64,000 nucleotides of DNA, taken from Octopus vulgaris (lineage: Eukaryota). Positions 402 through 63,084 of the stretch are shown piece by piece (position 1 is the stretch's first letter; each line of letters begins with the position of its first letter). The notes beneath the pieces are model-generated. The model worked only from the letters and a program-made list of their open reading frames with translations, was not told where the DNA came from and did no database searches. The position numbers were made by a program, and so were the translations under genes. The stretch lies in contig OX597831.1 of NCBI GenBank assembly GCA_951406725.2, positions 81,282,001 to 81,346,000 of the forward strand, in the 5' to 3' direction.

Positions 402-634
402 GTATCTATCTATCTATCTATCTATCTATCTATCTATCTATCTATCTATCTATCTATCTATCTATCTATCTATCTATCTATCTATCTATCTATCTGTCTA
501 TCTATCTATCTATCTATCTATCTATCTATCTATCTATCTATCTATCTATCTATCTATCTATCTATCTGTCTGTCTGTCTGTTTGTCTGTCTCTTGATATG
601 TATATATATATATATATATATATATATATATATA
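402..634. repeat. Compound microsatellite (TCTA)n/(TCTG)n/(TA)n
   Basis: Directly visible; it explains the YLSI/IY ORFs at 310-718. Confidence 0.97.
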
Positions 635-1030
635 TGGGCGAGAAGGAAATGGAGAACGAACGACAAAACAGAAGTTGCGCTAGTAAGCCATTATTTAATT
701 AGTAATAAAGGTGAATGAGTGAGAATGAAATTGTTTACGATCGTTTCTGTTTACCATGGTGAGGAAAATATACAGAAATGATCGTAAACACCTTCACTCT
801 CACTCTCTCACCTTTATTAATTAATTAACGGCTTACTAGCGCAAAAGACACACTTCTGTTTCTTGTTTGTCCTCCATTTTCTCCTCGCCTATATTAAACT
901 ATGGTTACCCGCTAAATTACCTGCTGCCGTATAACTTTTACCAAGGAATGTAACCACTGAGGTAATTACCAGAAGTGCCTTTGGATGTATCTATCCCTTA
1001 GAGGCTTTAAAATACCAACACCTCTAACTT
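632..1030 (+). mobile_element. Short foldback element between (TA)n tracts, Penelope-like pLTR relic
   Basis: Imperfect inverted arms ~632-750 and ~772-893. The left arm carries GAAACGATCGTA on the minus strand and the right arm a decayed hammerhead (..GGTGA..GAAATGATCGTA). (TA)n lies on both flanks. Confidence 0.6.
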
Positions 1031-1096
1031 ATATCTGTATATATATATATATATATATATATATATATATATATATATATATATATATATATATAT

Positions 1097-1455
1097 ATAA
1101 TATAAGGGATATTAGCCAACTGAATATGGCTAGGGACAGGGCAGGGTGGTGGGGGTGTCACTGTTGCATTTAGCCCCAGGCGAACATCAACGTCACCAGA
1201 TAGGCCGACGCCGTCACGGCGTCCTCTATCTTGCAAAGGGAGATCATTCCCCAAGAAGCGGATACCACACACGGACCTAGGTTTCAAGGTGTATTGCCTA
1301 TTATCAACGTGTGGTAGGCAGGTCGTTCTCGCGAAGGTCGTTCGTCCGAACGTTGTTGCTAATATCCCTTATATTATGTGTGCCGGGGGAATGATCTCCT
1401 GTAGAGGACTATATCTCATTTAGATAATTCCCTAGCCATTTCAGTTGGCTAATAT
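1097..1455 (-). mobile_element. Nested inverted-repeat element carrying a hammerhead motif
   Basis: Inverted pairs 1097-1116/1358-1377, 1111-1136/1429-1455 and 1238-1252/1386-1400; flanked by (TA)n. Confidence 0.65.
1268..1313 (-). ncRNA. Type I minimal hammerhead ribozyme motif (U3-A8 variant)
   Basis: Minus strand: CACACG-UUGAUAA-U AGG caauaca CCU U-GAAA-CCUAGG-UC-CGUGUG. Stem I is 6 bp, stem III is palindromic, and the site is GUC. Confidence 0.75.
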
Positions 1456-1599
1456 ATATATATATATATATATATATATATTTATATATATATATATATA
1501 TATATATATATATATATATATACATATATATATATACACACACACACACACACATATATATATATATATATATGTATATATATGTATATATATATATGT

Positions 1600-2134
1600 A
1601 TATAAGTAGTGTACATTTAAACACAAAGAGAAATTACCTATAACAGGCAATTTCTACACGCTAGGAGACAGTCAAAACGACCGAAGACCACAAACTTTAA
1701 GCAGTTTCAAAGGGAATGAAAAAATAAAAACTTTTACCTTGTTTTTACGGTTATACATATAGGTTTTGGATGATTTTAGTAAATAAAATAATTTACTAGG
1801 CAAGTCTTCATCAGTAACTGAGCCATACAAGACTAACCTATAATTATGAGACTAATAGCACGTGTCTCATCCTGATATGTTATATTTTTTTCAAAATCCA
1901 CCACGCAAGCGCACTTTCAGTCAGCAGAAAATGAAAAATGCGGAAACGAACTTTGAAAAGCTAATACCGATACTTAGATATATATACAGAGGGTAGTAAA
2001 ACTTTTACAAATTTCACTACCAGTGGCCTAGCATGTATAAAAAGTCAATAGACGACATATTATTCAATATAAAGTAGTGAACATTTAAACACAAAGAGAA
2101 ATTTATCTATAACAGGCAATTTCTACTGGCTAAG
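1600..2134 (-). mobile_element. Short element with ~65-bp direct terminal repeats and a decayed hammerhead
   Basis: Direct repeats 1600-1663 and 2068-2134 (..acatttaaacacaaagagaaatt..tataacaggcaatttctac..); lies between (TA)n tracts. Confidence 0.55.
1750..1818 (-). ncRNA. Degenerate type I hammerhead motif
   Basis: Minus strand: GUUA-CUGAUGA-[hairpin UAGUAAAU/AUUUACUA]-CC-AAAA (GAAA mutated)-CCUAUAUG-UA-UAAC. Confidence 0.55.
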
Positions 2135-2296
2135 TATTGATGTGTGTATATATATATATATATATATATATATATATATATATATATATATATATATATA
2201 TAATATAAAATATATAAATTACAAAGTGGGACAAGAACGCAAAAACACACAACGGAGACGACACAAAAAAACAGACGGGTCACTCGAAGCCTCTAA

Positions 2297-59967: not shown

Positions 59968-61648
59968 TCATAGTGTCGAGTCAAAGGCACATCGACCTGG
60001 TCGGCGAGACACTAAAAGAATACGAAGCCGTAACGGGAGCAAAAATTAACCGGGAAAAGTTAGTGGGCTTGCGGCTCGGCACCTGGAGAAGCAAGCCCAT
60101 GCCGTTCACCAGCATCTCCATCGTGGGACACTGGACCGACGAACCGGTTAAATTGCTCGGAGTCTGGTTCGGTCCGGACCTCCAAATGGGGTAGAACTGG
60201 GGCGAAATAACGACTAGGGTGGGTACTCTCACCCAGCAATGGGCTGAGAGGAAGCTATCCCTAAAAGGTCGGGCGGAGGTGGCGAACGCGTACATCGCAT
60301 CCGTCATCGAGTAGTGCCTGACCGTCGTGCCTTGTCCCGACCCTACCATCACCAAACTGGAACGCATACTCTTCCGCTTCCTGTGGAAGGGAAGCGTTCC
60401 GATGGTTAGGCGATCCAAATGCTGTCAACACCCGCTAAATGGAGGGCTAGGCATGCCGTGGTTGATGATGCGCAGACATGCGCTGAGACTGCGACATCTC
60501 CGGCGCTTCATAGACGATGGTGAACAGGTGTGGCCGCCTTTTGTACGACGCGCTTTCCCGCAGCTCGTCTCCTTGGCCGAACTACAATCGTGGATCAAAC
60601 AGAGACCGAGGCTAGGCGAATGGCACCGCGAGTGTCGCGTTGCTCTCAAGCAACTCTGCCGTCCGGGATCAAACTTGTGCGACTCTATCACAACAAAGCA
60701 TTCTATAGAGGATTAATGGAGGGGAGGTGCGACGACGTTCTCGGGCAGAATCTGGGCGTCGACGAGAGACACCTGACCCGCCTGTTCAGGACAACTTTCG
60801 GGCCGGGACCTATGGACATTCACCAAAGATCTCTGGCCTGGCAGTGCTATCGAGAAGCATTAACTGTTCGGGATAAGGTCTACAGGCACGGCTCGAGACA
60901 CACTGGACCGACCTGCCCGAGATGCGGTCAGAGCGACGAAACCGTTCTGCACGCACTCGTGCAGTGTCCATCCATTTCGGACCTGTGGACTTATGCCGAA
61001 CGGCTGCTGTCACGTGTGGTACGAGTCCGCCTGTCGGTCGAGTCTATCGTGGAAATTGCACCCCTCTCCCTCAACCGGGAAGGCAAGGCAGTCTTCATTG
61101 TACTGGTGGCTATGGTGAAAGAATGTATGTGGTGGACTCGAGCGAAAGGATTAGAGACAAACACTTACCTCTATGGCCAATCGGTCATGAACTTTTTTAA
61201 GTACCACTTGAAAAGGAAGGTGAGAATGGAAAGGCAAGTTTTGTCTCGTGAAAGATTCAAAAAAGATGGGTGAATGTTGCAAAGATGGTGCGTGCGAGTA
61301 ACGAAACAATTTTGAGCATGATCCTGTAGATCGTAAAAAAGAAAGAAAGAGAGCATTTTTGACCTCATGTGTTTATTTCCTCCCTGACTGGGGTTCCCGT
61401 GGTCTTTTCTGTAGGCTTTTCTCCCCACGGATGAACCTAATCTTGTTTGTTACTTTGGAAAAAAAAATTTCCTTCTGTGATACATGATCCCTTTTGATCG
61501 TTCTTTTTTTTCTTCTGATCCTTTTTGATCGAAATTTTAGATTTGTTTCCTTTTTTTCTTTCTTTTTCCTTTTCCATCACCGAAAAGAAAAGCTCTACAT
61601 TTGTAATTGTTCCCTCTGTGTCCAGCCCTGAGTGGCCAATAAAGAAAG
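59968..61648 (+). mobile_element. Tx1/L1-clade LINE, 5'-truncated, inside (TCTA)n
   Basis: YEAVTGAKINREK, VKLLGVWF, LSLKGRAEVAN, FLWKG, GGLGMP and CCHC CPRCGQSDETVLHALVQC. The T-rich 3' UTR ends AATAAAGAAAG. Confidence 0.88.
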
Positions 61649-61650
61649 TT

Positions 61651-61860
61651 ATCTGTCTATCTATCTATCTATCTATCTATCTATCTATCTATCTATCTAT
61701 CTATCTATCTATCTATCTATCTATCTATCTATCTATCTATCCATCCATCCATCCATCCATCCATCTATCTATCTATCTATCTATCTATCTATCTATCTAT
61801 CTATCTATCTATCTATCTATCTATTTATTTATTTATTTATTTATCTATCTATCTGTCTGT
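61651..61860. repeat. (TCTA)n/(TCCA)n microsatellite
   Basis: Directly visible. Confidence 0.97.
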
Positions 61861-62144
61861 TTGTCTATCTGTTTCTCTCTCTCTCGCTCTCGCTCTCTCT
61901 CTCTCTCTCACTACACACACACACACACACATATATTTATATATATAAATGGATGAATGAATTATCCTTTGTTTACCGTTAACATGGAAAATTCAATAAA
62001 CAGTTACCAATGTAGCAAAATTCACGCAAGTAACACGGATGTAGCGACCTATTCAAAGGTAGAAACTGTGGGTTAATGTGCGGTAATTTGTGTAGTATAA
62101 GTAAATAAATGGAGTTGAACGCAGATGCTATTCAAATTCTTTTA

Positions 62145-62227
62145 CTTTCGACATATGTTTCGAAGACAACATTGGTGTTATTCCAAAGGCATAATCGGTG
62201 TAAAATGCAATCTTCTCATTAGGAAAG
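62145..62227 (-). ncRNA. Type I hammerhead motif with long stem II (G5A) within a ~320-bp element between TA repeats
   Basis: CUUUC-CUAAUGA-GAAGA...UCUUC-GAAA-CAUAUG-UC-GAAAG. Confidence 0.75.
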
Positions 62228-63084
62228 AAAGAGAACCTATCTCAGCAACAAGACATTATAACAATTTATATATATATATATATATATATATATATATATA
62301 TATATATATATATATATATATATATATATATATATATATATATATATATTAACATATCCTTGGTTTGCAGGATGTGATGTGGGGAGGTTCGTGTAGAGTT
62401 TTTTAAAACAGTTAGTCGACCCGACCGCATAGAAGTTTCTTCATCGGTTTTTAACATTTTTCGTTTACATCCTCACCAGATCATCCAACTTTCTCACCTG
62501 ACTACTGAACTTTTCCAGGTAAATCTATTATTATTATTCCTCATTACCTGGCAGATTTAAGTTAGACTAATTTAATTGAACTAATGATAAAATAGCTTTT
62601 AAAAATACTTTTACGATTTGATAACGGTTAATATCTGCTTTTAGAAGTTTAGAAAATGGTAAATGTCTGCTGGCAAATAGTTGTTGCTGCTGCAGCTACT
62701 GTTGTTGTTCTTGCTGTTTACTCCAGAGAAGTCTTGACTAAACAGAGCTATGTTAAAAGATATTCCATCCATGCCCATCCAGCTTATTGTATACCTTCTT
62801 CAATCTGTACTTTCTGTTTTTAAGACAATACGATGGAATATGAAGAATATTTGACAGCTATTTCAAGCATGTCAAAGGACTAAGTGGTAGCTCCAGCATA
62901 GCCGTGTTTTTGTCTTCGATAGTATGTCTGTATTTGTGTGATTTAGTAAAGAGATATGACTGAAACCCTTCACATCATTCCTTGGAATCTGCTTTAATAT
63001 TTTGAACTGATTAACCATCATAAAACATTGAAAATTTTATCGGCAAAACCTACTTCCACCCCACTCCCAGTGTCTACCACTTAG

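Follow-up and report, generated by a model that had tools for sequence, protein, structure and literature searches.

Hammerhead motifs of probable Penelope-like elements, including rearranged forms

Minimal hammerhead ribozymes (min-HHRs) are known from metazoan Penelope-like elements, mostly as single dispersed copies in several families, and they have the type I order, a short stem I, an extra base after A9, G10.1-C11.1 in most cases, a palindromic helix III and a U3-A8 variant (Cervera and De la Pena, 2014; PMC4209133). In Hydra elements, the hammerhead lies about 100-200 nt from the 3' end and insertion is into (TA)n (Craig et al., 2021; PMC8557442, File S2). The same source describes (TA)n-targeting Hydra and Naiad families, octopus included, and all 6 of the newly listed Hydra families in its supplement insert in (TA)n. 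Here, a 64,000-nt stretch of the Octopus vulgaris genome (contig OX597831.1, positions 81,282,001 to 81,346,000; hereafter the window, numbered from its first letter) was analyzed, in which an initial annotation had noted about 16 type I hammerhead motifs. The window is animal-type DNA of 37% GC with 176 rows of tandem repeats. We read the motifs, with a probability of about 0.8, as 3' termini (parts of pseudo-long terminal repeats, pLTRs) of several Penelope-like clades, present as short non-autonomous elements and 5'-truncated copies.

Penelope-like elements are drawn with an inverted 5'-truncated partner and a one-sided extension of 30-40 bp (PMC8557442), which has been explained by two internal start sites of the reverse transcriptase (RT), and cleavage of AT-rich DNA has been shown (PMC11167929). 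A Penelope hammerhead is assisted by protein, and insertion in vitro can do without it (PMC11167929), and minimal type I motifs need a dimer or the help of protein (PMC4209133; PMC11167929). Penelope-like elements account for 6.83% of the O. vulgaris genome in a repeat paper whose accessible part mentions no ribozyme (PMC13282606), and 235 Rfam hammerheads are given in the giant squid paper.

Type I motifs in the window

Each of the 16 annotated coordinates holds a recognisable type I hammerhead-like motif, and 11 of the 16 lie on the minus strand. The first scan, written without the extra base after A9 and without the U3-A8 variant, missed most of them; the rescan used a structural descriptor built on the published one (PMC4209133), with 60 shuffles, both global and local (500 nt). 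The strict descriptor gave three matches (1268, 47966 and 50697) against shuffle means of 0.13 (global) and 0.18 (local), and none of the 60 shuffles reached three. With one core mismatch allowed, six matches stood against 0.40 and 0.72, again reached by 0/60 shuffles; one of the six, at 15400, was absent from the annotation and is probably due to chance. The motif count is therefore not reproduced by shuffled sequence, and the refutation that the annotation had itself proposed fails.

Several results pull the other way. With two core mismatches the excess fades (5 versus 1.28 and 1.90, reached by 0 and 2 of 60 shuffles), and nested folding gave weak z-scores (above -2) for 8 of 10 motifs. The Rfam hammerhead models returned no match at gathering score in the window and, by E-value, no hammerhead among the best 150 of 373 matches, which were microsatellite-driven noise only; this blank is explained by models that do not fit minimal or permuted forms.

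The 16 type I motifs are real and beyond chance, yet they are not 16 working ribozymes. The canonical core was taken as C3(U)-U4-G5-A6-N7-G8(A)-A9, G12-A13-A14, A15.1-U16.1 and H17, and every conserved base is kept in six motifs (1268, with the U3-A8 variant, 4894, 43648, 44178, 47966 and 50697). The other 10 cores are non-canonical or broken, by U or C at position 6 (five), C4 (one), an insertion (one) or the loss of a base (three: G12 at 1750, A15.1 at 48282 and G5 at 62145), and the population of working ribozymes implied by the annotation is not supported by this count. Its density of about one per 4 kb is right as an average but hides an uneven spread, with 11/16 in 38.5-50.7 kb and none in 17.0-38.5 kb. 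Stems I and II and the short palindromic helix III were confirmed in most motifs; the exceptions are a weak stem I at 4894 and broken palindromes at 41558 and 48282. CUGANGA also occurs at 9387, 15064, 15165, 27938, 30632 and 35463, with no complete motif around any of them.

By self-comparison of the window and alignments, the motifs were grouped into family A (16926, 39871, 41558, 42316 and 49261), family B (44178, 47966 and 48282, plus a partial inverted copy at 44404), family C (38510 and 43955) and six singles. Family C can be aligned with A across the motif and 3' end, and in both the (TA)n junction lies 80-105 nt from the cleavage site. About eight groups are thus present, in line with the at least seven families claimed, but these are not all unrelated, for the ACGU motifs (7/16) form one superfamily. 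The motifs of families A, B and C and of four singles were not found in the supplement of PMC8557442, where line breaks can hide matches, nor in the available supplement of the O. vulgaris repeat paper (PMC13282606). The singles and the members of the families are as follows.

1268..1313, minus strand: type I minimal hammerhead, U3-A8 core variant, matching the strict descriptor; stem I 6 bp, stem II 3 bp, helix III ACCUAGGU, H17=C at 1274
1750..1818, minus strand: decayed type I motif, CUGAUGA retained, G12 lost, imperfect palindrome
3176..5318, plus strand: AT-rich element (17% GC) with an internal tandem (3377-3956 = 4118-4698, 96%) and inverted ends (3176-3374 versus 5248-5060), a 70-nt extension on the right end only, then (TAT)26
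4894..4990, plus strand: type I motif, canonical core, very long stem II, ACGUACGU, H17=A at 4987, stem I just 2 bp
43648..43704, minus strand: type I motif with ACC-UUU-GGU as helix III and a canonical core, cut off on its 5' side by (TA)74
50697..50746, plus strand: type I motif, canonical core, stem I CUGU/ACAG, helix III ACUC-N-GAGU, matching the strict descriptor; (TA)11 37 nt downstream
62145..62227, minus strand: type I motif, G5 lost (CUAAUGA), stem I 5 bp, stem II 6 bp, ACAUAUGU, 5' side on (TA)41
16926..16961, plus strand: family A motif, core CUGUCGA+A (U6), ACGU, H17=C
39783..39992, minus strand: family A mini-element between (TA)n tracts; motif 39872-39907, core CUGUAGA+A (U6), H17 at 39876
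41558..41593, plus strand: family A motif, U6, helix III palindrome broken (ACAU)
42318..42351, minus strand: family A motif, core CUGUCGA+A (U6), ACGU, H17=A
49262..49297, minus strand: family A motif, core CUGCGGA+A (C6), ACGU, H17=U
38510..38544, minus strand: family C motif, core CCGACGA+A (C4), ACGU, H17=U
43953..44049, minus strand: family C motif, core split by inserted (AT)22 and some 16 further nt
44145..44549, unstranded: family B bipartite insertion; motif 44178-44265 (minus), core CUGAGGA+U (canonical), ACGAUCGU; short end on (TA)15, inverted 5'-truncated copy from 44404, with a longer end
47940..48476, unstranded: family B inverted dimer, inverted part 47940-48395 (88%), extension on the right end only; motif 47966-48053 (minus) matches the strict descriptor, motif 48282-48368 (plus) is without A15.1

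Translation of 3176-5318 gave no reading frame; an origin as a mitochondrial insert was dropped on the tandem and inverted anatomy alone, without a sequence search. At 1105-1245 (plus strand), a decayed relative of the element at 41758-42079, with a mutated hammerhead 3' half, is joined in inverted orientation to the 1268 element. A 60-bp direct repeat (1605-1663 and 2073-2132, 92%) surrounds the element of the 1750 motif and may be another partial tandem, and a perfect 34-bp palindrome (50663-50696) lies directly 5' of the 50697 motif. The insertion in the 43955 core (43979-44043), which carries (AT)22, is bounded by a 5-bp inverted repeat.

Split hammerhead-like motifs in the S-G-C order

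Type-SGC and type-CSG hammerheads, whose blocks are permuted non-circularly, were described from metatranscriptome, metagenome and RefSeq sources, with no link to Penelope or Naiad in the available text (Eckert et al., 2023; PMC10085705). In the window, four motifs outside the annotated list (2303, 3063, 6753 and 46680) have the order S-G-C. They share with the type-SGC form all conserved bases as well as a further helix that ties the far side of stem I to that of stem II, to which helix IV below corresponds.

2217..3170, minus strand: family N partial-tandem mini-element; its direct repeats of 194 bp (2217-2410 and 2978-3170) are 99.5% alike, the unit measures about 760 bp and the 3' end lies on (TA)36
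2297..2369, minus strand: S-G-C motif, stem II 5' strand upstream at 2369, G12 at 2331, C3 at 2303, predicted cut after H17=A at 2348
3057..3129, minus strand: S-G-C motif, second copy, H17 at 3108, C3 at 3063
6747..6819, minus strand: diverged copy of family N, carrying an S-G-C motif whose H17=C is at 6798; the 3' end of the element lies on an AT tract near 6643
46487..46766, plus strand: fragment of about 280 bp between AT tracts, housing the 46680 motif; its 3' end shares AAGACATC with the published Naiad_Ovul end
46621..46686, plus strand: S-G-C motif of unrelated sequence, found de novo, H17=C at 46645, G12 at 46660, C3 at 46680; stem II, stem I and helix IV 6 bp each, stem III 5 bp

GAAA at a fixed spacing upstream of CUGANGA was seen at three sites (2303, 3063 and 6753, all minus) and in 0 of 100 shuffles, and the three are homologous (family N). 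No open reading frame (ORF) was recognised in 2217-3170, and its spacer (2411-2977) translated without a reading frame. Pairing analysis gave an upstream cleavage block; one of its two arms is complementary to the strand following GAAA (stem III), the other to the strand preceding CUGANGA (stem I). When all six block orders were scanned, S-G-C gave four matches against a shuffle mean of 0.015, with 0/200 shuffles holding at least two, and the other five orders gave 0, 0, 0, 1 and 0; all conserved bases and stems I and III are present in S-G-C order at the four sites. The sole GSC match, at 46042, is taken as chance, since it falls inside the coding remnant of a long interspersed nuclear element (LINE) and has its like in 4/200 shuffles. 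With gaps of up to 20 nt, S-G-C stood at 4 versus 0.06.

The stem II strand is where these motifs depart from the described form. Block C (stem I, CUGAnGA and stem II strand) was assumed to be unbreakable by Eckert et al. (PMC10085705); in these motifs, by contrast, 59-66 nt separate the upstream stem II strand from C3. In all three sequences the strand before GAAA finds its best partner 16-19 nt upstream of block S and not after CUGAnGA; an intact block C, with the stem II 5' strand right after CUGAnGA, is absent, and a 4-bp downstream option 5 nt after A9 exists at 2303/3063 only. The stem II formed from upstream has 5, 4 and 6 bp in 2303, 6753 and 46680, with G10.1, and helix IV, between the strand after the upstream stem II strand and the linker before stem I, has 9, 7 and 6 bp. 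When the upstream 30 nt were shuffled 20000 times, these two helices, which are outside the scan descriptor, were together equalled in 120, 272 and 43 trials. A comparison of 2303 with 6753 shows a both-sided (compensatory) change in every one of the four helices, and 93% of pairing cells are filled versus 17-44% in slid controls, in an alignment of three rows of which two are nearly identical and one gave the structure.

Some points count against this structure. Three of the four matches were already known when the S-G-C descriptor was drawn up, and two copies are near-identical; the independent count is therefore three sequences, one of them found blind. The excess shrinks with gaps of up to 60 nt (5 versus a mean of 0.76 and a maximum of 4), stem I has one mismatch each in 2303 and 6753, and a helix V between the tail that follows A9 and the upstream strand, which would bridge A9 and G10.1, was not above chance (2888, 2416 and 442 of 5000 shuffles). 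Nested folding at 2303 and 46680 recovered stem III and helix IV with no significant z-score, as expected for pseudoknots. A relaxed S-G-C core returned AT-rich weak matches only. Family N as a type II hammerhead was ruled out because the stems do not pair. Overall, cleavage by the split S-G-C form is rated somewhat more likely than not.

Possible permuted hammerheads at Naiad ends

The Naiads have been described without canonical hammerheads, although several of their ends are labelled HHR_core or HHR_half_core (Craig et al., 2021; PMC8557442). Block order and spacing at the 3' ends of Naiad_Obim and Naiad_Ovul are those of family N, and cephalopod Naiads target (TA)n; the permuted fold went unrecognised in that paper as far as its available text goes, and only non-coding derivatives occur in the window. 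The last 450-600 nt of 26 Naiad consensus entries (PMC8557442) were inspected by eye, with no computation and with names taken from the file order. A non-circular hammerhead was seen at 11/26 of these ends: split SGC in Naiad Obim, Ovul, Esco, Bfor, 3_Chem and 2_Movir (cephalopods, a ctenophore and cnidarians), intact SGC with U3-A8 in Sdum, and type CSG, in every case accompanied by a long fourth helix, in 2_Nbra, 3_Nbra, Hpol and Ptep. The other 15 ends, bivalve ends included, showed none or were unclear. Two bivalve ends (entries before Sglo and Mcor) have a common GC-rich 3' motif without CUGANGA, possibly another ribozyme class.

It seems somewhat more likely than not that Naiads and their non-coding derivatives carry a working self-cleaving hammerhead which is non-circularly permuted and multiply pseudoknotted, of type CSG in some lineages and SGC in others, and present in high copy number. 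The form in the window, with a break between A9 and G10.1 and stem II made from upstream, would lie outside the six permutations proposed in 2023 and, within the searches made, would be the first in animal genomes and in retrotransposons. The Naiad ribozyme would have been overlooked because it is non-circularly permuted and pseudoknotted. No link between Naiad or other retrotransposons and permuted hammerheads was found in the mostly open-access literature searched, nor in the available parts of bioRxiv 10.64898/2026.07.22.740005 and PMC13725137, and within the same literature no publication on octopus Penelope hammerheads or cephalopod retrozymes was found that links the permuted form.

Probable Penelope-like origin and (TA)n junctions

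The origin from Penelope-like elements proposed in the annotation, with minimal hammerheads, palindromic helix III and non-coding mini-elements, is supported, and elements of this kind have been described already (PMC4209133; PMC8557442). The extra base after A9, G10.1-C11.1, the palindromic helix III and the U3-A8 variant agree with the published min-HHR (PMC4209133), and, with decayed copies counted, the local density in the window greatly exceeds the 2,000-9,000 per genome given in that paper. Stem I and helix III of the 50697 motif are those of the published Hydra-2_aMil, stem II and helix III of 43648 resemble the Hydra-1_oBim motif, and an unpaired U on both sides of stem II is common to Hydra elements, 4894 and family B; in contrast to Hydra elements, the window has terminal fragments only, with no upstream ORF (PMC8557442).

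The anatomy agrees as well. An inverted 5'-truncated partner with a one-sided extension was found in four elements (3176-5318, 44145-44549, 47940-48476 and 636-900), and the extensions are 70-85 nt versus the published 30-40 nt (PMC8557442). The family B insertions and 3176-5318 are bipartite, with two outward-facing 3' ends and a 70-85-nt extension on one end only. Partial tandems with pseudo-LTRs are represented by the direct repeats of 2217-2410 and 2978-3170 and by the internal tandem of 3176-5318, and none was seen in the other elements. Two inverted elements carry half-motifs only.

636..900, unstranded: fold-back element starting at (TA)17; each arm has the hammerhead 3' half only, with GAAA, a ACGAUCGU-type palindrome and H17 (736 and 786), and no CUGANGA
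41758..42079, unstranded: inverted element (91%), missing from the initial annotation; no core 5' half, each arm with a hammerhead 3' half, a 10-nt near-palindrome and H17 (41845 and 41992)

The annotated (TA)n or (TTA)n junctions were borne out, such a tract lying within 130 nt downstream in 11/16 motifs, against 17% of random unmasked positions and 34% in the dense region (binomial p 7e-6 for the window and 0.004 for the dense region, with copies that are not independent). A tract also lies within 130 nt upstream in 8/16. That the elements prime insertion at microsatellites, as the annotation put it, is a reasonable suggestion from known Penelope biology.

What speaks against this origin is the lack of coding partners: no remnant of a Penelope RT or GIY-YIG domain was found in the window (Pfam on 60/172 ORFs and a six-frame motif scan), and the tie to autonomous families is by likeness, judged by eye, of the ends to published Hydra and Naiad consensus sequences. 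Pfam gave three RT-related pieces (22061, 45512 and 60524), all apart from the motifs. A missing Penelope ORF is expected for non-autonomous or truncated copies, and the elements are therefore filed as derived from, and not as autonomous members of, the group.

The elements might instead be ordinary short interspersed nuclear elements (SINEs), miniature inverted-repeat transposable elements (MITEs) or fold-back repeats, whose hammerhead look arose by chance in a few amplified families. Family copies are indeed not independent, several elements are long inverted repeats, Rfam gave no match, and octopus annotations hold many unclassified SINEs (PMC13282606). This is largely refuted by the shuffle excess of type I motifs, of S-G-C motifs and of stem II with helix IV, and we regard it as very improbable, since at least eight unrelated type I sequences and two unrelated S-G-C sequences obey the same constraints, two motifs match published Penelope motifs (PMC8557442), and, in contrast to MITE termini, the inverted arms point outward and their ends are unequal. 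Non-LTR retrozymes, replicating as tandems through circular RNA, come closer: they are likewise non-coding, with type I hammerheads and many monomers, and have been proposed to be non-autonomous Penelope derivatives of pLTR origin (bioRxiv 10.64898/2026.07.22.740005), and one partial tandem (2217-3170) is present. They are defined, however, by tandem units each with a complete motif; the window has no array of at least two complete type I units, and each family A copy is a monomer whose ends are fixed at (TA)n, which makes the retrozyme explanation unlikely.

The annotation further suggested that the elements help to explain the microsatellite load by generating or expanding repeats. In its favor, 31% of (TA)n bases touch a motif-bearing element (22/91 tracts, 838 of 2716 bp, with element bounds set by the analyst) and (TA)n stands on both sides of many insertions. 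This expectation is not supported, because 69/91 tracts touch no motif element, 60% of the bases in perfect short repeats are not (TA)n (which makes up 2746 of the 6921 bp of perfect 2-4-nt repeats in the window), published Hydra and Naiad families insert into (TA)n (PMC8557442), and the 43955 core is itself split by an insertion bearing (AT)22. Tracts on both sides fit the targeting of existing (TA)n, so the association is explained without tract creation, and microsatellite generation is quite improbable; the Penelope-like origin is retained.

Family A and its U6 core

Family A is a very high-copy family under three species labels, as thousands of contigs aligned in each run. Contigs of four public runs (three species labels) were aligned to the copy at 39783-39992 at 80% likeness, and 17919, 16122, 6541 and 3472 contigs aligned in the four runs, which are contig counts and not copy numbers. 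The loose alignment ends at 39796 and 39963 continue into (TA)-rich letters, so family A is a discrete element of about 180 nt. No match of the family A pattern was found in metagenome contigs. Parts of 37800-44600 are represented in public runs under four coded species labels.

The core consensus of family A is CUGUNGA plus A, with U fixed at position 6, which was not seen among the min-HHRs in the available text of PMC4209133; the canonical core is lacking in all five copies and in the family consensus. No change of at least 3% was seen at position 6 (39900), C3, U4, G5, G8, A9, G10.1, C11.1, G12, A13, A14, A15.1 or U16.1. At position 7 (39899) all three other letters occur, at 47-61% of depth, H17 (39876) is A or U only, the outer base of stem I (39907) is U or C opposite G, and a loop II base also varies. 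The helix III CpG (39878-39884) shows 4-11% transitions among copies. At the C11.1-G12 CpG, five bases from it, no transitions exceed 3%. This conservation is to be read with caution: variable sites make up 7/36 of the motif versus 17/75 and 9/57 of the flanks, so the motif is not lower and the invariance (0/13 core sites variable) is only marginal, and alignment to one copy favours the letters of that copy, with a drop of depth at 39902-39908.

The nearest precedent is the natural A6C hammerhead of phage Bcep176 (PMC3088659; PMC7151607), which is alike in its change at position 6, and the family A copy 49261 has C6; family A differs in having U6 within a very high-copy animal repeat. No natural A6U variant was found in the literature searched, judged by title and abstract. 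The spread of family A with U6 indicates that efficient unaided cleavage was probably not needed for its mobility, and useful cleavage by family A appears doubtful.

One may suppose that the non-canonical motifs, both U6 family A and split S-G-C, are derived from Penelope but do not cleave, their fold being a signal for RT recognition or initiation. The natural A6C core cleaves poorly in Mg2+, its activity being strongly lowered (PMC3088659; PMC7151607), any single change in the CUGA turn left low activity (PMC9901934), insertion in vitro is unimpaired by hammerhead mutations (PMC11167929), and insertions above 1-2 nt between CUGAnGA and the stems were not known to Eckert et al. (PMC10085705). 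Yet the catalytic bases are canonical in 4/4 S-G-C copies of the window, with H17 A or C while the stems change, and in family A the free position 7 and an H17 that avoids G form the pattern of a cleavage core. A role as a signal only is thus conceivable but less than likely, and we keep to Penelope-derived hammerheads, of which the split form is the better candidate for cleavage.

A model of insertion

Based on known Penelope biology, the RT and GIY-YIG protein of an autonomous element would nick AT-rich DNA, here (TA)n, and the elements would be mobilised in trans by such proteins of Hydra, Naiad and other clades via target-primed reverse transcription. Reverse transcription would start internally, 40-130 nt downstream of the hammerhead, and early termination and template switches may yield short copies, inverted partners and one-sided extensions. 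In source elements, the hammerhead would trim tandem read-through RNA to unit length, and single genomic copies would mostly be dead or weak. Type I motifs would be supplied by Hydra-type and other canonical elements. Naiad-type ends would supply the S-G-C form with its A9-G10.1 break, in which the upstream strand makes stem II and is held beside stem I by helix IV. The two S-G-C copies of 2217-3170, 760 nt apart, would free unit-length RNA, and the permuted form, having a full stem III, could cleave as a monomer.

Other repeats and coding remnants

The window also holds remnants and repeats of other kinds.

21490-22800, plus strand: broken RT coding remnant (Pfam RVT_1, E 4e-4 at 22061-22516), which we take to be an R4/Dong- or RTE-type LINE
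26650-27075, plus strand: C2H2 zinc-finger match (E 9e-6), possibly an exon of a host gene
45480-46445, plus strand: 5'-truncated LINE remnant (RVT_1, E 1e-4), presumably CR1-like, ending in (AATTG)6; followed directly by (TA)21 and then the 46487-46766 fragment
59700-61300, plus strand: Tx1/L1-type LINE remnant (zf-RVT, E 7e-7 at 60524-61270), with a FIDD motif upstream
54872-55061 and 57168-57357: terminal inverted repeats of 190 bp, 97% alike and 2.5 kb apart, of a young DNA transposon
16246-16419, 20139-20342, 24984-25191, 27252-27463, 35979-36190, 36274-36531 and 63593-63757: SINE-like dispersed family (68-81% alike), often beside (TAA)n-type tracts
19416-19784, 44717-45114, 50143-50198, 52595-53083, 53912-54306, 57550-57706 and 57898-58350: second dispersed family, some 400 bp long and adjoining (TA)n tracts, which might be a Helitron- or Penelope-type mini-element

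No hammerhead was found in the two dispersed families, and the ORFs inside the DNA transposon (54872-57357) gave no Pfam transposase match.

Significance

The type I part of the finding is an extreme local case of a known kind. The new additions are the U6-fixed, high-copy family A and the S-G-C motifs whose stem II strand has moved upstream of CUGANGA. Craig et al. (PMC8557442) concluded that Naiads propagate in the absence of canonical hammerheads and that these ribozymes might be mere parasites of Penelope elements. If true, a permuted hammerhead at Naiad ends would turn this argument round and suggest that RNA trimming is generally needed, non-circular RNA permutations would move from environmental sequences to animal genomes, and the break between A9 and G10.1 would revise what counts as indivisible in the best-studied ribozyme. 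A rearranged hammerhead may explain why one large group of Penelope-like elements was thought to be ribozyme-free.

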